64,000 bases of DNA from a virus, in IMG/VR virus record IMGVR_UViG_3300013114_000098. One strand, 5' to 3'. The notes under the pieces are model-generated. The model made no database searches and was not told the DNA's origin. It saw only the letters and a list, made by a program, of their open reading frames with translations. How positions within the stretch are numbered: position 1 is the stretch's first letter; the number at the start of each line of letters is the position of its first letter. A program made the position numbers and the translations under genes. Below are positions 12,943-38,691 of this stretch, piece after piece.

Positions 12943-15159
12943 TTAACTACCCATCGCTAATTGTTTTAAGCGTTCAATTTCTTGTGCATTTATACTGGCT
13001 TGTTCTGCATTGGCGTTCGCTTGATATGAGTTCTCTGCTCTTTCTATATCATCTGGATCTTCACTTCCAGCTCTTACTGCGCCTTGTCCTGTTGCTTGTA
13101 TATTACTACCAGCTACTGTTTTATTTACTACTTTAGCATCTCTGTTCTGATCTTGTACTGTAATATTGTAGCGTCTATTTGCTACATTTGAATTCTGTTT
13201 GTTTATTGTTGCTCTACTAGGTTGTGCTGTAGATGATGAACCATATCCTAGCTCATTTATTTCATCTCTAAATTTATCATCTAACCATTCATCAAAATCT
13301 TCTGAATTCATAAAGTCTTGCCAAGTTTTAAATCTTTTTTGTATTTCTTTACTTGATGCCCACATACCTCTAGCCGCATCTGCTCTTGCGTCCTGTTTTG
13401 GTTGTTCATTTATTGATTCTTGTGGACCATCATAAAAACCTTTTAAGTCATCTTTCATATTGTCAGGAAGTGAGTCCCAATAAGTATCAACTAATTCTTG
13501 TAATTCTCTTCCTCTTGGACCCCAAGCGTCCTGTTTTGGTTGTTCATAATTATCTTCTTCTGGTCCAAATGCATCAATTGGTCTATTTGGGAATTTTGTA
13601 TCATCATCTTCTTTAACACTTTCACCATAAGGTGGTTGTGGAGCATCTGGGTTTGGATCATGTGCTGTATCTCTACGAACCTTATCTCCTCTAATATCTG
13701 GAATACCATGTCGCTCACTAGGATAATACCAATTAGAAATTACACCATCATACACAGATTCAAGTTTTTTCAACCATTCTTTTTGTTGATATGTTTCTTT
13801 TGATAGTTCATATAATTCTCTTATTGCTTCTAAAGTTTCTTGTGTTTTAGGATGAGCATATTTGCCTCTACCATCGTTCTCTGTTACATTGCCTTCTGAA
13901 AATGATCCTGTGTCGCCTTCAAGTCTTGCTAATACTTTTATTTGATCAGGTGTCATTGTTTTTGATCTTTCTAAATCATCACCTGATAACTTATGTTGGT
14001 ATGGACCTTTTCCTTTACTAATATCTTCTCTTTCTAATTCGTTGTATAAGTCAGATCCTAAATTTTCACCATCTTTATAAATATCAAATTTTTCATTGCC
14101 AATATAAACATGGTCATCACTAATTTGTACATCAAGATTCTCATCTCCAGTCATATAATGATAATAATCTTCAATTTGATCAAGTAGTCCATGCATTGTA
14201 GGCGAAGACATTTCACCATTTGGTCCTGCATCTGTTGTATATACAGCTCCTGGATTTTCTTTAAGTCCTGCTAATTTTCTTATTCTTAATGTTGCTGGAG
14301 TCATTGTTGGATCATCTTCTACTAATGTGTAACCTTTTGCTATTAATTCTTGCCATTTTTTTGGATCAGAAGTTGAGTGACTATGCCAAACTCCATCTTC
14401 ATATTTTCCGTATCTTTTATTACCACGTTTCTTTTCTTCTTTACCCATCCAGTCGCCGGTTTTTGATCCAGTTTTGTATTTCTTATTCTTTGCCCAGCCT
14501 TCTTTTGAAAAAGGATCTACATCGTCTTTACCTTCAAAAGAAGGTCCACGAGTTAATGCTATCATATCTTCGTCAGCTATATACATATCCGTATCTGGAT
14601 CATAATATTTGCCTTCTTTTGGATCGTAATAAACTGTTTTACCACTTCGTGTTGCAATAGGACCTTCTAGCCCATCACGTTCTTGATACTTTTCTGTATC
14701 AATTCGTGGTAACGTATGTTTTTTTGTTTTGTCTTTTGCTATATCTATTATTTCTTTAATTTCAACACCTTTCATTGGCATTTTTTTAGGTAATTGGTTC
14801 AATGGTACACTTCTACCCATTTTTCCTATTATGAAACCTTTTTTTCTAAATTCTTGAGCTCTGTTTTGAAGGTCTTGCATATAGTCTGTATAATAAACCT
14901 TAGCGTCACCACCTGGTTCACCATAAGTTAACATAAGTTTTTGATAATGGCCTACTGCTTCTGAGAAAGAACTTAAATCAATAATTTCTGAAAATGCGTC
15001 ATTGTCATCTGCTTTAATTGAGTTAATAAGTTTTAATGTTTCTGAAAATGATAAATTTTTTAATTGTTCAGAAATTTGATCTCTTGTTACTTCCATACCA
15101 AACTTAACGTTTGCAAAGTCTATAACACTTTCAATTGTACTGTTATTTGTTACTTCCAT
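12943..15159 (-). CDS. Modular acidic head/internal protein (putative polyprotein)
   Basis: 738 aa; segments delimited by hydrophobic-x-E; RIRKLAG and C-terminal RLKQLAMG. Confidence 0.6.
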   Translation of the reverse strand: MEVTNNSTIESVIDFANVKFGMEVTRDQISEQLKNLSFSETLKLINSIKADDNDAFSEIIDLSSFSEAVGHYQKLMLTYGEPGGDAKVYYTDYMQDLQNRAQEFRKKGFIIGKMGRSVPLNQLPKKMPMKGVEIKEIIDIAKDKTKKHTLPRIDTEKYQERDGLEGPIATRSGKTVYYDPKEGKYYDPDTDMYIADEDMIALTRGPSFEGKDDVDPFSKEGWAKNKKYKTGSKTGDWMGKEEKKRGNKRYGKYEDGVWHSHSTSDPKKWQELIAKGYTLVEDDPTMTPATLRIRKLAGLKENPGAVYTTDAGPNGEMSSPTMHGLLDQIEDYYHYMTGDENLDVQISDDHVYIGNEKFDIYKDGENLGSDLYNELEREDISKGKGPYQHKLSGDDLERSKTMTPDQIKVLARLEGDTGSFSEGNVTENDGRGKYAHPKTQETLEAIRELYELSKETYQQKEWLKKLESVYDGVISNWYYPSERHGIPDIRGDKVRRDTAHDPNPDAPQPPYGESVKEDDDTKFPNRPIDAFGPEEDNYEQPKQDAWGPRGRELQELVDTYWDSLPDNMKDDLKGFYDGPQESINEQPKQDARADAARGMWASSKEIQKRFKTWQDFMNSEDFDEWLDDKFRDEINELGYGSSSTAQPSRATINKQNSNVANRRYNITVQDQNRDAKVVNKTVAGSNIQATGQGAVRAGSEDPDDIERAENSYQANANAEQASINAQEIERLKQLAMGS
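13388..13547. repeat. 22-bp exact direct repeat (13388-13409 and 13526-13547) encoding EQPKQDA
   Basis: gcgtcctgttttggttgttcat occurs twice, 138 bp apart and in frame. Confidence 0.9.
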
Positions 15160-31836: not shown

Positions 31837-34800
31837 TTATGAAACTTTTCTTCGTAAACCAGTTAATATCGTTTCAGCAATGTTTTCAGTTTCAACTTCT
31901 TTTTCTTTTGCTGGTACTTTATTCTTCTGATCCAAGTATTTTACAATCTTAGCCATCATAATAACATGCTGATTTGGCAAGTTATACAATTCACTAGATA
32001 TTTGACTTAGTAAATTAAATACTTCGTCATTTTTACTATTCATTGCGAGATAAGATAACATTGACACTAACTTAGCCATTGCACCCTGTTCACCTGAGTA
32101 TTTAATTGGATCTTCATTGTCAGGATGTTCAGGATCATTTGGATCAATGTTAAGCTGAAAATCTTCCTTGTCTTTAATCATATCGTATACACGATTGATA
32201 TTAGTTTTAGTTAGATCTGTCATGCTATCTTTCTCTTTTACAATACGGGCTACTGTTTCTAAGACCGCATCCATATTCGCAGTCTTAAATGTATTGTACA
32301 TGAACTTGTCAGTTATGTCAACCGCTTCTTTATCATTTTCTTCTACAATCGCAGTAGATTGAGCCTGATAGGCGTTATAACCTCTAGAAGTTTGTAAACG
32401 TTTAACTGTACTCTTAAATTCTTTTAATTTCTCTTTAATAGTTTCAACGATATTTTCATTTCCTTCGTTAACTAATTTGTGTGAACGCACATGTCTCAAA
32501 AATTGAGTACATTGCGACACTTCTTCAGATAATTTTATAATTGATTCACCAATTGCATCATATGGTGTCCCACCATGGCTTACATGATTGGCCATAGCTC
32601 TTGCACCTTGTAAATATTTAAATGGGAATCTAAATCTTTCACCAGCACTATTTTCTACAAATAATGCTTTAATATTTCTACTTCTTGCACCGCGTTTTTC
32701 TTCATTTACAGCCGCTGAGTGCCTAATAATAAGTTTAGTTGCCTCAGGTAATTGTATATAACTTGTCTTAATACTTCCTGTTGCACGTGAATACCCTTCC
32801 ATAATTATTTTATGGTTTTTATCATTTTTGTCATGAACATCTGCTACAATAGCATCACCAAATCTAGATAAAACTACTATATCACTTGATTCAACTAGAG
32901 TTATTTCACTTGGGTCAAACTCTTCATCTTCTTGTTCTTCTGTTGCACCTTGTACAAGATGACCTGGAACATAACCTGCTCTATCAAGCATATCTTGTGG
33001 AGTATAAGTAACACTACCTTCTCTGTTAATAGTATCAACTGCTTCTTGAGCAAAACCCATATAATCTTCTTCTTGTGAGAAGAACCAACTCATAAAGTCT
33101 TTGAAACTTACTTTTAATTCGCCAGCTTCAGTAACTGTTTCTTCACCATAAAGACCACGCCTCTCATCTCTACGACGCTGTAATTCTTCATATTCTGACT
33201 CGTCTTTGTCTTCTTCGTCATCACCATAAAGACCGTGCTTCACATCTCTACGATGCTGTTCTTTTTCATCTTCGTCTTGTTCTGTTTTATTACTTTCAAA
33301 CATTTTTGAGTAATCTGATGAGTATTCTGCAATATTTTCACCTGGGAATAACACGTTAAATAATGCAGGGTCTTTTGATATTGAAACCTGGAAATAATAT
33401 ATCAAACTATCTCTGTCTTGAGTATCCATATAGTCTGGTTGCATCATATCTACAACATCCATATCGCCAGCATCCATCATATCATCTAGATGATTAACAA
33501 ATTCTTCACCTTCATCTGGATAATCTTCTGGATCATAATCAGTATGTTTTATTATTGCCGCTCTAACATTTTTAATGTGTGGTAAAAGTTGAGCGTGTGT
33601 AACATCATCTCTACCAGCTTCAATAATCTTCTGGCGTTCGCCATCTTTGACTGGCCTTATTTCAAAGGCATTTTCTCTCCATTTACCTGAGTCTCTATAT
33701 TTTTGAACAATTTTCTCTGCATCATCATATGTGACCCATCCTTGATGTACTTTAGCACCAGCAATCCAAACACCGTATTGCTTCTCTTCTTCTACTAACT
33801 TAACACCTGCTAATTCTTTTAATCTTCCAACTGCTTCTTTCATATCATATGCTTCCAAGTGTGCTACACCTGATGCCTGCATACCTTGTTCACTCCATTT
33901 AACATCTCTACCGACAATTTTACTAATACCGGCTTCAAATCCTTTATCTGTATAAATTTCCCAAGGACCATTATGTTCAACGTGTACTTCATACCATCCA
34001 TCATCGTGCTGTTCAACTGTAATATCTCCAACTGTTACATGATCTGCTTCCCACATTTCATCTTCAAGCCAAATACTATCACCTGCTAATTCAACATCTT
34101 TATTTACTTTTATTGTTTTATGGCCTTCGCCTGCTTTTGTATTAAATTCTGTTAATTCTTCTTCTGTTGATTCTGAATTAAAAATATTCTTATCACCTAT
34201 TTCGTTATTAGTTTTGCCATCACGTGGAACTTCAGTAGGTTCACCATCTGGAATTTTACTTACGTCAAACTCACCTGCTGGTGAATCATCACCTCGTTGA
34301 CGTTTAAGATCTGGATCTCTTGGATCCATACGTCTAAACGGATGAGGACCTTGCTCTAGAGCAAAGTCAGGATACATTTCAACTGCTTTAGCATAAATGT
34401 CTGGATGATCATTTTTTAGTTTAGTCTTGTGTTCTGTATTTGCTTCATCAGTTAATCCTGCCATACGAGATTCCATATCGCCTGCCCACATTTCAAGTGA
34501 CCATTGTTCTTTATCTTTATCAAGTTGCGGGTGCATACTTGCAAGACCATATTTTGGAACTGGAGCTGAGCCTTCAATATCTGCACCTTGTGGTGGCATT
34601 TCTGCTTCGTTCCATTCATCATATGTAAGTACTTTGCCTGTATCACCGTCTGAATAGTTTCCTTCTCCTGGATTATAATAAATTACACGACCCGAATGAG
34701 TCGCAATAGGACCATACTGCTTTTTATTTGCTGGATATTTTTTTGGATCTGGCTCTGGCAAACTGCGATCCCAATTTACATTTCGTCTGCTTCGATATTC

Positions 34801-35193
34801 AGTAAGTTCTTTTTCTTCGGTTTTAATACCTGATAGTTCTTTTAATCTAGTTATTAATTCACCTTCTTCGTTTACTACATCGTGAGCAAAGTCTTTTGGT
34901 TCAATATTTTTATCAAATTTTCTAATGTTATATTCTGCCATTGCATTATGTCCTGCTTTCTTAATACTATCTAATAAATCTTTATGTTCATTAAAGTTAA
35001 AACTAGCTCCTGCCTGTACAACTAGTTCAGTTAGATCATCCTCTTCTCTTATTGTAACTAAAAAATCCTTATCGTAAGCATAAAATCTAGCTGAACGCTC
35101 AGGATCTAGTGTTTTGTTTCCTGCTGGATCAAACAATTTTAATTTAATGTTTGCTCCTTTGAGAATGTTAAAAATTTCTTGCGATAGTTGCAT
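31837..35193 (-). CDS. Large modular head/internal protein (putative polyprotein)
   Basis: 1118 aa; globular-looking ends with about 690 aa of acidic modules between; two RLKELxG motifs; late promoter. Confidence 0.6.
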   Translation of the reverse strand: MQLSQEIFNILKGANIKLKLFDPAGNKTLDPERSARFYAYDKDFLVTIREEDDLTELVVQAGASFNFNEHKDLLDSIKKAGHNAMAEYNIRKFDKNIEPKDFAHDVVNEEGELITRLKELSGIKTEEKELTEYRSRRNVNWDRSLPEPDPKKYPANKKQYGPIATHSGRVIYYNPGEGNYSDGDTGKVLTYDEWNEAEMPPQGADIEGSAPVPKYGLASMHPQLDKDKEQWSLEMWAGDMESRMAGLTDEANTEHKTKLKNDHPDIYAKAVEMYPDFALEQGPHPFRRMDPRDPDLKRQRGDDSPAGEFDVSKIPDGEPTEVPRDGKTNNEIGDKNIFNSESTEEELTEFNTKAGEGHKTIKVNKDVELAGDSIWLEDEMWEADHVTVGDITVEQHDDGWYEVHVEHNGPWEIYTDKGFEAGISKIVGRDVKWSEQGMQASGVAHLEAYDMKEAVGRLKELAGVKLVEEEKQYGVWIAGAKVHQGWVTYDDAEKIVQKYRDSGKWRENAFEIRPVKDGERQKIIEAGRDDVTHAQLLPHIKNVRAAIIKHTDYDPEDYPDEGEEFVNHLDDMMDAGDMDVVDMMQPDYMDTQDRDSLIYYFQVSISKDPALFNVLFPGENIAEYSSDYSKMFESNKTEQDEDEKEQHRRDVKHGLYGDDEEDKDESEYEELQRRRDERRGLYGEETVTEAGELKVSFKDFMSWFFSQEEDYMGFAQEAVDTINREGSVTYTPQDMLDRAGYVPGHLVQGATEEQEDEEFDPSEITLVESSDIVVLSRFGDAIVADVHDKNDKNHKIIMEGYSRATGSIKTSYIQLPEATKLIIRHSAAVNEEKRGARSRNIKALFVENSAGERFRFPFKYLQGARAMANHVSHGGTPYDAIGESIIKLSEEVSQCTQFLRHVRSHKLVNEGNENIVETIKEKLKEFKSTVKRLQTSRGYNAYQAQSTAIVEENDKEAVDITDKFMYNTFKTANMDAVLETVARIVKEKDSMTDLTKTNINRVYDMIKDKEDFQLNIDPNDPEHPDNEDPIKYSGEQGAMAKLVSMLSYLAMNSKNDEVFNLLSQISSELYNLPNQHVIMMAKIVKYLDQKNKVPAKEKEVETENIAETILTGLRRKVS

Positions 35194-35234: not shown

Positions 35235-35450
35235 TTACTTTCTTTTGAAGCCTTTATACCGCTTATGAAACTGCTCTACACGACCTTCAGTATCCATAAT
35301 TCTAGTTTTACCTGTAAAAAACGGATGACATTTTGAACATACATCTAATTTCATTGTTTCTTTATTAAGAGTTGACCGAGTTTCGAACGTAGCACCGCAT
35401 TGGCATACAACAGCAATGGTCTTGTATTGAGGATGGATATTCTTCTGCAC
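35235..35450 (-). CDS. rpmE: Ribosomal protein bL31, Zn-binding type A
   Basis: KNIHPQY..CQCG...RST...LDVCSKCHPFFTGK....GRVEQF. Confidence 0.95.
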   Translation of the reverse strand: MQKNIHPQYKTIAVVCQCGATFETRSTLNKETMKLDVCSKCHPFFTGKTRIMDTEGRVEQFHKRYKGFKRK

Positions 35451-35478: not shown

Positions 35479-37035
35479 TTATAATAAACTAAAAGGCATT
35501 GGTTCCATGCCATCGGAATCTTCAAAATCATCATTTAAATAATCAAATGCTTCTTCTTCATATTTAGATACTTCCATACTCATACGTACAATTAAATTAA
35601 CTGCCATTACAAGGTCATCTGTTTCACCAGATTTTGCAGAATAACTATTACCTTTTGCTATAAATGTTTTTAATTCTCTTAATAATGGTTTACTTGCTAC
35701 TTCTAATTTTTCTGTTTCTACCCAATGTTTTAACTTTGCACAAGCAGATATTTTGGCTTTGTGTGTAGTAGTAAACCCTCTTCTATAGCGTTTAGCATTA
35801 CCATGTTGCCTTGTTTCAGTTAAAAATGTTCCTGGAAAATTTTCTTCGCCTTGTTCTTCTACAACAACTAATGCGGCTTCACCTAAGGTATTGTTCTCTA
35901 CACTGTAGTAAATTTCACAATCACCGTTAGATTCAGTATCAATATGTTGTGCTATTTCTCGCAAAATTTTTATCTGTCCTTGTACAGTTGTTCTATTGTG
36001 CATCCATTCTGCTATTTGTTTCATACCTGGCATACTATATACTTGTATAGCACTATTATCTCCACCTGTACCTAAACTAGGATCAAGTCCTATCATATAC
36101 AATTTACCTTTAGCAACTGGCGAATACCAGCGTACCTGTCCAGATATAGCGTATGGATCACGTGCTTTCATATTAGCAAGTTTAATACTATCAATTAATG
36201 TTTCATCATACGCAATAAATTCACATTTATGTTCACGTCTAAATCTTTCTTCACCTATTTTACCATATTCAAGATCTGCCCATTCTTGATCTCTTTCTGG
36301 ATGTCTTTCCCATGTAGCTAGATAATGTGCAAATCCATTTACGCCAGTATCTGTTTCAATACCATATTCATCAATGTTTTTATTCGCATCTCGCCAAATT
36401 TGTGCAAACTGATCATCATCCATATTAGGTGTGCTTGTAATAATACATTTACCACCTGTTGCTAATGTGGGAGACAGTGAAGTCCAAAATTCTTTTGCTA
36501 CATTTGGACGGACAAATGCAAACTCGTCTAAATATGCTAATGAGATACTTAAACCTCTTCCTGTATTTTCTGTTGTACTTTGTGCAATAATACGTGAACC
36601 ATTATCAAACTCTAAACTACCTTTGTTGTATGCTGTTACACCAGCACGTATATAATCTGGTAATGTTTCGTATGAGAATCGTACACGTTGCATAATTTCT
36701 GATGCACCTGCATATTTGTGTGCCGCTACTAATATAGTTTGATCTGGATTAAACATTGCATACCATAGCAAATATCCTGCCGCACAAGTTGACTTACCCA
36801 TTTGTCGTGCCAGCATATTAATACTGTATCTATTGTTGTGATATACGTCAACTAATTCGTCTTGAAAGTCATATAAATCAAATCTTAACCTGCCTTTTAC
36901 AGGATGTTGAATATAACAATGCTTACTCATAAAGTATTTGGGATCATCTGCACATCTAGCAAGTTCTAAAAGTTGCTCTTCTGTGTACTTTTCTCTTCTA
37001 TACGGAGTTTTTGTTAATTTAGTATCTACTGACAT
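35479..37035 (-). CDS. terL: Terminase large subunit
   Basis: LYDFQ, ARQMGKS, LDEFAF, TSTPN, GLDPS, DDLVMA; start MSVDTK by TAATG overlap. Confidence 0.95.
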   Translation of the reverse strand: MSVDTKLTKTPYRREKYTEEQLLELARCADDPKYFMSKHCYIQHPVKGRLRFDLYDFQDELVDVYHNNRYSINMLARQMGKSTCAAGYLLWYAMFNPDQTILVAAHKYAGASEIMQRVRFSYETLPDYIRAGVTAYNKGSLEFDNGSRIIAQSTTENTGRGLSISLAYLDEFAFVRPNVAKEFWTSLSPTLATGGKCIITSTPNMDDDQFAQIWRDANKNIDEYGIETDTGVNGFAHYLATWERHPERDQEWADLEYGKIGEERFRREHKCEFIAYDETLIDSIKLANMKARDPYAISGQVRWYSPVAKGKLYMIGLDPSLGTGGDNSAIQVYSMPGMKQIAEWMHNRTTVQGQIKILREIAQHIDTESNGDCEIYYSVENNTLGEAALVVVEEQGEENFPGTFLTETRQHGNAKRYRRGFTTTHKAKISACAKLKHWVETEKLEVASKPLLRELKTFIAKGNSYSAKSGETDDLVMAVNLIVRMSMEVSKYEEEAFDYLNDDFEDSDGMEPMPFSLL

Positions 37036-37730
37036 TAATATCTCCCAAACGCCCATTCACGTTCTTTACACCACCAACATTTTTTACAATGTGTAACCAT
37101 TTTATCAGGTTGATCTGTATTTTCTTCAGCATGTTGTTCACAACTTCTTGTATATGGAAATAATTCTTCTATCATATTAAAATGCTCATATAAATGTGCT
37201 ACCATACGTTTATCAACTGCCATAAGTGGCGTCCAACGTGTAATTCCTGGTACATATTCCTTTAATATAAGTCTACCATGTCCTGGATCACGTGGTTTAT
37301 GTCTATTATTTATAGTATCAAACTTAACATCTAACGGAGGATTTTGTGTAGTACCATGTAATGTAAAGGTTATACCATGCAAATCTTGTTGCATTTTTTC
37401 TGTATCATCAAGTTCTGATCTAATTTGATCGGTACTATAAAATGTATAATGACTTTTAATTAGTTTTGTTCCTGTGAGCTGGAGTACTCTATTAAGTACT
37501 CTAGTACTCCAGTTAGCGTTATACCACCCCTTAATAGGGTTAGCAGACGTTATAACATGCAGTTCTGCCTCTGGTATATATTGCTCACAGTATTGGATTA
37601 GCATCAATAATAATATGGCACTATCTGCACCACCTGAGATGTTAATACAAATCTTGTTATGAGGCTTTGGTACTGTAAATTCTATATTCTGACCGAAATT
37701 ATCCGTATATGTTTCAATAGGCCTTTTCAT
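37035..37730 (-). CDS. QueC-like PP-loop ATPase
   Basis: ISGGADS and TRSC...HCKKCWWCKER. Confidence 0.75.
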   Translation of the reverse strand: MKRPIETYTDNFGQNIEFTVPKPHNKICINISGGADSAILLLMLIQYCEQYIPEAELHVITSANPIKGWYNANWSTRVLNRVLQLTGTKLIKSHYTFYSTDQIRSELDDTEKMQQDLHGITFTLHGTTQNPPLDVKFDTINNRHKPRDPGHGRLILKEYVPGITRWTPLMAVDKRMVAHLYEHFNMIEELFPYTRSCEQHAEENTDQPDKMVTHCKKCWWCKEREWAFGRY

Positions 37731-37809: not shown

Positions 37810-38691
37810 TTATTTTTCTTTTGACTTTTTGTATGCTTCTCTAATTTCTTCAACTGTATGTTCTTTTAAGCCTACTTTGAAATTTTCTGCATCTAAATAC
37901 TTCTTCAAACTTAGGTTAACGCTTTGTGCAAAATTTTCGTATGGTTCACCATGTGATGTAGCTTCATCTTCAGCCGCACCTTCTGGTGTATTTGCCCATT
38001 CATTTAATTTTGTTTGAATTAATTCTTCGCTTAAACCTGCATTTCTAAGTAATGTAATTAATTGAGTTGTGTCCATTGTTGGAGCCTCCTCTATTTTTTC
38101 TTCTGTAACTGCATTGCATCCACAACTGCATTCTGGACCACAATTACAATCTGAACCATGCCCACATGAACAGTCTTCAGTTATAGTTTCTTCTTTCATT
38201 GCTTTTTTAATTGCTTTGTCTTTAGCTGCCATGTAATCATCTGAATCAATATCACCGTCTTTATCGTGATCTTTTTTCTTACCTTCTTCTACTGGCTCTT
38301 CTGCTACCATGTCTACAGGAGTTTTATTTGTTATTTTTTTCTTTTTACTTAACTGTTCTGTTTTAATTTCTTCTTCTGCTGGTGCTTCTTCTGCTGGTGC
38401 TTCTACACTCTCTTCAGCATGTCCGCCTTCTGGCATATCGTGGTTTCTACGGAAATTTTCAACAAATTCTGTTATATCTTGTCCGCTCATCCAACGTGCC
38501 ATTTCATCAACTAAAATATTATCTTCAAGACCTAATTCGTCTTGTAAATCATATAATGGTTGAGAAAATTCACCAACTGCTTCTTTTGTTACTGGTACTT
38601 CTTTTAATTCTCTTTCTGCTGGAACTTGGCTTTGAGCATCATTGTCTATGCCGTGTCTAGCAAGGGTTAATATTCTGTCTAAATCACTCAT
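37810..38691 (-). CDS. Acidic modular head/internal protein
   Basis: EF-hand-like and Cys-rich modules bounded by x-x-E linkers. Confidence 0.55.
   Translation of the reverse strand: MSDLDRILTLARHGIDNDAQSQVPAERELKEVPVTKEAVGEFSQPLYDLQDELGLEDNILVDEMARWMSGQDITEFVENFRRNHDMPEGGHAEESVEAPAEEAPAEEEIKTEQLSKKKKITNKTPVDMVAEEPVEEGKKKDHDKDGDIDSDDYMAAKDKAIKKAMKEETITEDCSCGHGSDCNCGPECSCGCNAVTEEKIEEAPTMDTTQLITLLRNAGLSEELIQTKLNEWANTPEGAAEDEATSHGEPYENFAQSVNLSLKKYLDAENFKVGLKEHTVEEIREAYKKSKEK

Follow-up and report, generated by a model that had tools for sequence, protein, structure and literature searches.

A jumbo-phage virion protein whose linker appears to be a hot spot for exchangeable modules: a probable carrier of protease-released head cargo

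Gene X of IMG/VR virus record IMGVR_UViG_3300013114_000098 (64,000 nt; hereafter the window, to which all positions refer) encodes an 1118-amino-acid protein, P0001, made of two conserved domains of a virion structural protein family and, between them, a long string of small modules that differs from one orthologue to the next. We propose, as the probable explanation, that the linker of this conserved virion carrier is a landing pad for cargo cassettes bounded by protease-type sites, which would be docked in the prohead, cut apart and released in the head. The window is AT-rich (~33% G+C) and comes from an uncultured jumbo myophage whose core genes are of the T4 type; genes were identified (PHROG and Pfam scans) for tail fibers, adaptor, sheath, tube, head closure and terL, as well as for a gp32-like single-stranded DNA-binding protein (SSB), UvsX, UvsY and helicases. 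A nucleotide search of phages gave no near match.

The open reading frame (ORF) of X (31837-35193, minus strand) is intact, and ENA contains an identical protein (P0272). A previous sequence-only reading had described it as a putative cargo polyprotein of 1118 aa within a late-expressed head protein, whose unrelated blocks close on a hydrophobic residue, any residue and Glu (phi-x-E) and are joined by two RLKEL(S/A)G spacers; every motif that it named is present at its place. VVNE comprises residues 106-109 (E109 codon, 34867-34869), IIME residues 796-799 (E799 codon, 32797-32799), RLKELSG residues 116-122 (34828-34848) and RLKELAG residues 457-463 (33805-33825), while the Glu residues of eight internal motifs are residues 132, 349, 453, 468, 525, 633, 689 and 768. 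At 6 of 10 motifs (the eight internal ones, VVNE and IIME), the next residue is A, G or S. The RLKEL-type peptide, called LAG below (consensus LxRLKEL[S/A]G[I/V]), is a helix of 10-12 residues that stands at two module junctions of P0001; further phi-x-E sites are found at most of the junctions. The features of X are as follows, an arrow marking the candidate cleavage point here and below.

31837..35193 (-): carrier gene X (P0001, 1118 aa), between terL/bL31 and the gp32-like SSB gene.
34882..35193 (-): conserved N-domain, residues 1-104, alpha/beta fold; 88-94% identical in orthologues, hidden Markov model (HMM) match to 1-104.
34867..34875 (-): left candidate protease site, V107-N108-E109↓E110; Glu and Val conserved, long inserts beginning just after it.
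34822..34857 (-): first LAG (scaffold-tail-like) helix, LITRLKELSGIK, residues 113-124; helix predicted.
34600..34722 (-): module M1, a mini beta-domain (GPIATHSGRVIYYNPGEGNY), residues 158-198; predicted local distance difference test score (pLDDT) 73-86.
34360..34497 (-): helical module, residues 233-278, followed by disordered residues 279-353 (AlphaFold2 model).
33835..34122 (-): module M2, residues 358-453, an alpha/beta domain of ~95 aa (LAGDSxW...EQGMQ...HLEA); pLDDT 91-97.
33799..33834 (-): second LAG helix, AVGRLKELAGVK, residues 454-465, between DMKE453 and KLVE468.
33652..33777 (-): module M3, residues 473-514; pLDDT 62-83.
33295..33645 (-): module M4, residues 517-633 (DVTHAQLLPHIKN...DYSKMFE).
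33127..33294 (-): module M5, acidic HRRDVKHGLYG repeats, residues 634-689, closing on TVTE689; homologues P0173 and P0244.
32890..33117 (-): module M6, residues 693-768, closing on TLVE768; pLDDT 87-97.
32797..32889 (-): insert tail, disordered, residues 769-799, with the right candidate site I797-M798-E799↓G800; pLDDT <50.
31840..32796 (-): conserved C-domain, residues 800-1118; phrog_13484 member, homologues listed or annotated as virion proteins.

Sequence homology of both conserved domains, together with gene position, places P0001 in the phrog_13484 / GAP32_270-PA5oct gp278 family of virion structural proteins. P0001 matched phrog_13484, annotated as "virion structural protein," with an E value of 1.5e-20, and HMM matches covered the N, C1 and C2 segments of X. 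By tblastn, homologues of X were found in 86 cultured phage records, including those of the PA5oct-like and Rak2-like phages (GAP32, CBB and the 121Q group), Vibrio phage 2.275.O and Sinorhizobium phage Phosso. The gene order terL-X-gp32-uvsX is kept in PA5oct, GAP32, CBB, Vibrio phage 2.275.O and Phosso and in 19 IMG/VR loci. The X proteins of cultured relatives are 429-496 aa long and align with only the two ends of P0001 (residues 1-~105 and ~800-1118); a database search with the C-domain returned more than 200 homologues, mostly of 416-430 aa.

The basic form of X (416-430 aa), as it can be read from these sequences, consists of the N-domain, a disordered linker with a near-invariant V-x-E↓G/S/A, and the C-domain. 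In the 56 distinct short forms, the end of the N-domain reads PKDF(A/S)Hxx-V-x-E-(G/S/A)-(F/Y)-S-K-x-x-G-S-x-K-T-S-Y, and all 56 distinct short linkers carry phi-x-E-[GSA] 4-9 aa before the GSxKTSY anchor. The linker site reads SVSE↓S in PA5oct and KIQE↓S in GAP32. When 49 basic-form sequences (46-78% identity) were aligned, the linker Glu was invariant and the Val was conserved in at least 90%. The AlphaFold2 model of the homologue P0020 has its lowest confidence in the linker segment 101-116 (pLDDT <50), between two confident domains (~86 for the N-domain). A conserved phi-x-E with a small residue behind it is, within a disordered linker, what one expects of a linear motif, and in its letters the linker motif matches the form of the T4 gp21 site. 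The T4 protease cuts after (L/I)-x-E, and its specificity has been reviewed (PMC9026906); sites that we read from the T4 record are FLTE65↓A in gp23 and LLRE10↓S in gp24. Accessible phi-x-E followed by a small residue, as in substrates of S77 proteases, is predicted by sequence and model at V107-x-E109 and I797-x-E799↓G800. Some short forms contain mini-duplications of the site, e.g., SVKE↓GTIQE↓GFS.

The insert of P0001 comprises residues 110-799 (690 aa); it begins directly after E109 and closes at I-M-E799, after which the protein continues as G800-Y-S-R-A-T-G-S-I-K-T-S-Y. The insert starts right after the left site in all 52 distinct long forms, and 48 of the 52 distinct long inserts end in phi-x-E-[GSA] no more than 8 aa from the GSxKTSY anchor. 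In a distant clade (~32% identity in the C-domain), inserts of ~300 aa occupy the same position and each open with E-INLLKRLSGIE (DMNE↓EINLLKRLSGIE), while other distant members have extra sequence added at the C-terminus instead. The distant-clade inserts of P0374, P0379 and P0385 (residues ~140-240) include two long hydrophobic stretches, e.g., LAPLAYGAWIIGTRIVAGVARYAL, which resemble membrane helices and as such would be unusual for a packaged protein. In the marine lineage of the window, the linker of X looks like an insertion hot spot for horizontally exchanged modules.

The content of the insert changes quickly between relatives. Across the 19 IMG/VR loci, terL, X, the SSB gene and uvsX are 79-97% identical at the amino acid level, and the C-domains of X are 78-99% identical; the orthologues of X are 590, 753, 800, 882, 917, 940 and 988 aa long versus 1118 aa in the window, and their middles, of 130-713 aa, are different combinations from a common pool of blocks. 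Conserved ends with a reshuffled middle are what the sequence-only reading had predicted of orthologues; a middle collinear among them, which would have spoken against it, was looked for and not found. The same reading had called for structure prediction module by module, and AlphaFold2 modeled the insert as separately folding units with low-confidence stretches between them, residues 358-453 and 693-768 having a pLDDT above 90. When HMMER was run with the insert, its blocks proved to have separate homologues, either stand-alone (77-150 aa) or as parts of multi-module proteins; when the insert alone was used as a tblastn query, cultured phages gave no match.

Individual modules illustrate this exchange. 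M1 occurs also in the window protein P0390 (E 2e-8), in stand-alone proteins and in KVP40.0154 (L030:2911-3162), an untagged 83-aa protein from the early-gene region of the T4-like Vibrio phage KVP40. M2 is widespread and is carried, alone or fused, by 114 representative proteins. A homologue of M3 is found in a different context in P0171, and M3 is missing from the orthologues at loci L005 and L007. M4 is a stand-alone gene starting with MNYKDLSRLRELSGIKE in L025-L027 and lies within the other carrier family in L024. Stand-alone homologues of M6 (77-106 aa) end in LMTKD, LID or LVSD at the stop codon, without Glu, and the fused copies read LVE↓S/T at this place. Other orthologue inserts hold zinc-ribbon-like modules (CxxC..CxxC). 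Two loci deviate in the carrier itself: the 929-aa X orthologue at L023:5956-8787 has a normal N-domain and left site, other modules and a basic Lys/Gly-rich end, without a C-domain and without an SSB gene within 4 kb, and may be a rearranged or replaced carrier; at L013:38-2314, X is split into a 437-aa ORF and a C-domain in another frame, through a frameshift or an assembly error.

Module boundaries were compared with chance by two tests. In the first, 53 distinct presence/absence events between orthologues were set against random boundary placement (2000 trials). Both boundaries could be placed directly after Glu in 13 of the 53 events versus 1.96 ± 1.4 at random (maximum of 8 in 2000), and at least one boundary was phi-x-E in 15 of the 53 versus 3.5 expected. 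In the second test, the flanks of M2 in representative proteins other than X orthologues were compared with composition-matched shuffles of the same flanks; phi-x-E was present within 12 aa upstream of M2 in 37 of 64 cases (20.8 ± 3.2 in shuffles) and within 12 aa downstream in 32 of 61 (18.7 ± 3.2 in shuffles). Breakpoints are thus enriched at Glu and at phi-x-E, as had been anticipated from the sequence. Raw BLAST high-scoring segment pair end-points, used as breakpoints, gave a noisy ~2-fold enrichment, which the indel-event test supersedes.

A protease of the required family is encoded by related phages, and its type of site recurs in their head proteins. A Peptidase_S77 match of 88 bits was found in two related records, and an S77 protease is present also in cultured relatives; the protease of one relative (L031:10471-11100) has 209 aa. 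The head module of the relative G001 reads portal, a 303-aa acidic (core) protein, protease, a 365-aa coiled-coil scaffold and the major capsid protein (MCP), and the 365-aa protein is homologous to a 121Q protein annotated as "scaffolding (T4 gp22-like)." The G001 scaffold contains 11 phi-x-E↓[SAG] sites, and the G001 MCP has LSE41↓S; among 80 related loci, the 40 commonest distinct MCP N-termini have L/M/I-x-E followed by S, T or A at this position. For 121Q, whose MCP has LTE43↓S, a drop of the MCP from 42.2 to ~37 kDa in sodium dodecyl sulfate-polyacrylamide gel electrophoresis has been published, and bubblegrams are consistent with an inner body, i.e., protein inside the head (PMC5646251). 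Removal of 43 residues from the 121Q MCP gives ~37 kDa, in agreement with that report. In the records of Atu_ph07 (L035), Phosso (L037) and PAC2, the gp22-like scaffold is annotated as "DNA double-strand break repair Rad50 ATPase," probably a coiled-coil artifact.

The scaffold of these phages ends in the LAG peptide. The G001 scaffold has the C-terminus AEIINLKKLAGIN, and 115 of 116 full-length scaffold homologues end in (E/D)I(I/V)xL(K/R)KLAGI followed by 0-3 residues. The scaffolds of cultured phages end in EELRRLAGIK (PA5oct), LKELDVLSGINKK (121Q), LEELSILSGIIKK (RaK2), INDLKRLAGIKK (Atu_ph07), LARLKELGGVN (RsoM2USA) and IHELRRLAGIEK (Phosso), and 22-33 aa upstream of the tail they carry a phi-x-E↓S-type site (phi-x-E↓N in RaK2; ~18 aa upstream in RsoM2USA). 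T4 gp22 has no such C-terminal tail. Residues 113-124 and 454-465 of P0001 match the scaffold tail consensus of the clade (tails such as AEIINLKKLAGIN and VEELRRLAGIK), and what had first been taken for spacers are thus copies of the C-terminal tail of the scaffold, which makes them docking signals rather than spacers, probably, by analogy with the scaffold.

The placement of LAG in other proteins bears on this point. Stand-alone module genes have it at their N-terminus (MNYKDLSRLRELSGIKE↓A), and many module proteins close with it (ILKRNAGV or RLKMLAGTTSI before the stop codon). Of 47 distinct X homologues that are extended at the C-terminus, 24 end in it by a strict pattern, and more by eye, Phosso among them. 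It can also be followed directly by a protease-type site, as in LSGIKE↓A, LSGIKE↓D, LAGVKLVE↓E and SGIKTEEKELTE↓Y. Within the ORFs of the window, the strict RLKELAG-type motif occurs 3 times versus 0.08 in shuffles (maximum of 2 in 1000), and all three occurrences fall in two modular proteins. Co-folding of the MCP with the last 50 residues of the scaffold scored 0.01, which gives no verdict either way. Three other readings were considered and rejected: one as an intein or homing element, of which no domains are present; one as LAGLIDADG, whose D-A-D-G part the motif lacks; and one as a double-glycine leader or AG↓X viral protease site, since the motif is often at the very C-terminus, which fits docking rather than cleavage.

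Junction motifs could also act at the level of DNA alone, as short homologies for module recombination with no role as protein signals, and the same junction strings do recur between different modules and genes, with module exchange evident among three carrier families and stand-alone genes. We consider this account quite improbable, because the motif is kept at the protein level across scaffolds that are only 31-43% identical, a distance at which DNA homology is lost; these scaffolds are from phages of Pseudomonas, Escherichia, Klebsiella, Agrobacterium and Ralstonia and from marine phages, and the motif there stands at the extreme C-terminus of an essential, non-modular protein. A DNA-level role is moreover compatible with the carrier explanation and does not exclude it.

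Several independent phages have X annotated or listed as virion associated. GAP32_270 and CBB gp276 are annotated as "virion structural protein," and the PA5oct gp278 record carries an electrospray ionization tandem mass spectrometry flag. The virion mass spectrometry table of phAPEC6 lists gp205c (48.5 kDa), next to the SSB, and also the gp32-like SSB gp204c itself (PMC7247149). We matched gp205c to X by size and position alone. The SSB in this virion list could be a co-purified, DNA-bound passenger or packaged SSB.

This SSB entry, which implies that such lists may include DNA-bound passengers, is one of the observations that would suit a different location, namely, that X is a tail, neck or DNA-associated protein that never meets the prohead protease, the likeness of its sites being coincidental. 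The X gene does lie between terL and gp32/uvsX/uvsY, outside the head module, and fold searches gave no match that would assign a location. No Pfam family reached the curated cut-off in X or in any of 52 family members scanned, and six weak Pfam families each matched one member only; a PDB search by sequence gave only a chance-level match, Foldseek of the X core against PDB gave only weak gelsolin-like rows (E ≥ 0.013), a wide VIA-align search stayed at noise level (Z ≤ 6.9), and an ESM Atlas search gave no usable matches. To such a location we nevertheless assign little probability, given the scaffold-tail motif in many X family members, the conservation of the protease-type site in the family and its repeated virion association.

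In the mechanism that we favor, LAG helices, and perhaps the carrier's own domains, would dock the polyprotein in the assembling prohead, at the same receptor that the scaffold tail uses. A gp21-like protease would cut the phi-x-E sites and thereby separate the N-domain, the modules and the C-domain, and the freed small proteins would stay beside the DNA in the head and may pass into the host like IPI-III and Alt of T4. Some cassettes would bring, or gain, the scaffold-tail tag.

Several points weigh against this carrier explanation. For every member of the family, cleavage, location in the head, docking by LAG and ejection are what we infer. The protease, scaffold and MCP were studied in relatives, the window having no head module. 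The basic form of X is a virion protein despite having no LAG, and the carrier itself can therefore be incorporated without it. M1 is an ordinary small protein in the early region of KVP40, and the modules are therefore not intrinsically head proteins. The insert modules have no match in Pfam, PHROGs or PDB (Foldseek of the insert was empty); with no recognizable activity in the modules, the effector role that the sequence-only reading had given them is unsupported. Strict phi-x-E at both exactly resolved boundaries occurred in 1 of the 53 events only, phi-x-E in the low-pLDDT stretches of P0001 alone was modestly enriched (by a coarse block-level test), and Glu-rich linkers are common. With strict two-sided sites so rare and the single-protein signal modest, cutting at every internal junction is less certain than at the two outer sites, where cleavage is most probable, judging by the motifs.

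The same statistics would fit a middle that is hypervariable and never cleaved, X being present whole in virions, e.g., as a flexible component or one exposed on the surface, and phi-x-E serving linker structure or domain contacts. The inter-domain linker is predicted to be disordered and hence tolerant of insertions, acidic linkers are naturally rich in Glu, and the two-sided test is weak. We regard this explanation as unlikely, although it deserves more weight than either of the two set out above: an invariant Glu and a near-invariant Val within a disordered linker are hard to explain structurally, and phi-x-E-[GSA] is regenerated at the insert ends (the 48 of 52 distinct long inserts above). 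The motif is, in addition, the one at the maturation positions of MCP and scaffold in this clade, the scaffold-tail motif on the modules points to the inside of the prohead, and modules gain LVE↓S on fusion while their stand-alone copies end without Glu.

X is one of three modular carriers in the window, and the others are listed here.

37810..38691 (-): second carrier P0391 (293 aa), with a LAG-like N-terminus (DLDRILTLARHGI), a variable middle and a conserved C-part from QLITLLRNAGL.
12943..15159 (-): third, carrier-like protein P0390 (738 aa), with an internal LRIRKLAGL, a C-terminal tail ending in EIERLKQLAMGS, and module M1.

Orthologues of P0391 are 415 and 522 aa long and have different middles, one of which carries M4; stand-alone tagged module genes lie just downstream of P0391. 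In the window, the middle of P0391 has a Cys-rich peptide, DCSCGHGSDCNCGPECSCGCN (38110-38175), between TITE and VTEE. As a broader and more tentative proposal, to which we give somewhat less than an even chance, the scaffold tail LxRLKxLAGI may be a portable capsid-loading tag across the Rak2/PA5oct/Atu_ph07 clade, used at either end of a protein or between protease sites by mimicry of the scaffold. On this proposal, X, P0391 and P0390, together with numerous small stand-alone genes, would supply proteins that are packaged, released by the protease and ejected, in a combinatorial pool that turns over between near-identical phages.

The closest parallel is found in T4, where the internal proteins known as IPI, IPII and IPIII and Alt are small, variable and non-essential, reach the prohead core by means of a short peptide, the capsid targeting sequence (CTS), and are freed by gp21; a role for the CTS in the evolution of T4-like phages, as a way of packaging varied proteins, has been suggested (PMC9026906). 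The likeness to X lies in the combination of a short targeting peptide with a protease site and in the protease family, S77. The CTS of T4 has the sequence MKTYQEFIAE, and the P0001 peptide LxRLKEL[SA]G[IV] is unlike it by direct reading. The CTS is N-terminal and ~10 residues long, whereas the LAG tag is N-terminal, internal or C-terminal and is copied from the scaffold tail; different in sequence and unrestricted in position, LAG is not a CTS homologue. The T4 internal proteins are, furthermore, separate genes, whereas the cargo here is concatenated in a two-domain carrier.

Other systems share parts of this organization. The phiKZ-like phage SPN3US has inner-body and ejection proteins that are substrates of gp245 and are cut after x-E (PMC10052503). 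As proposed for the phages studied here, jumbo heads are full of protease-cleaved internal proteins, and several sites per propeptide are possible; these phages are, however, of another lineage, use an A-x-E site and lose N-terminal propeptides rather than exchangeable strings of modules, and no tag derived from a scaffold tail is described there. Polyvalent proteins and MuF-effector fusions are long, multi-domain and mosaic and, according to one proposal, are packaged together with the DNA and injected with it (Iyer et al. 2017, PMC5512222). X resembles them in being coded among virion genes and in its mosaic, reshuffled architecture, and a homologue of X in BFVD bears the name [quoted passage not shown] The disparate known activities of polyvalent proteins are not found in X: no enzymatic or large polyvalent protein-associated Pfam domain was present in 52 X members, and without known activity domains X falls outside the definition of a polyvalent protein. 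Its modules are also tiny (30-120 aa), and processing would be by the head protease and not by a built-in metallopeptidase.

For the proposed docking, scaffolds and shells of the HK97 fold provide the analogy. In phage P22 (gp8) and in herpesviruses (pre-VP22a), the C-terminal tail of the scaffold binds the inside of the shell, and the herpesvirus protease clips this tail from the scaffold body. A single portable loading peptide is common to many kinds of encapsulin cargo. These tails are docking peptides inside a shell, and binding by LAG is proposed by analogy with them; the phi-x-E↓S-type site 22-33 aa before the LAG tail likewise suggests, by analogy with the herpesvirus scaffold, that the tail is clipped. 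A limited search of the literature revealed no case in which non-scaffold cargo reuses a phage scaffold tail, and a similarly limited search of the comparative and review literature on jumbo phages and T4 heads found no mention of the X family or of the scaffold-tail motif.

If the carrier explanation is true, what T4 achieves with a targeting peptide and a gp21 site extends to a large, globally distributed clade of jumbo phages, where it would scale by concatenating cargo in a carrier and by borrowing the tag from the scaffold. It would provide a sequence rule to predict which jumbo-phage proteins travel in the head and would point to a fast-evolving set of proteins that likely act at the start of infection and are candidates for anti-defense functions. 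It would also offer a simple tag to try for loading foreign proteins into the capsids of laboratory jumbo phages such as PA5oct or 121Q and would predict the point at which the scaffold is clipped from its docking tail.

Some observations concern the expression and neighborhood of X. The late expression first attributed to X is not established, its sole grounds being gene position and a 7-of-8 ATAAATA box upstream of X; the exact T4 late promoter TATAAATA was not enriched within the window. Between terL and X is an intact gene for ribosomal protein bL31 (35235-35450, minus strand; Pfam E 1e-31), which is confined to the closest relatives (L005, L007, L008 and L021) and missing in the other loci. 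Just upstream of terL, a 231-aa ORF (37035-37730, minus strand) has a weak QueC-like match in its C-terminal part, and its positional counterpart, GAP32_268, is annotated as part of the large terminase.

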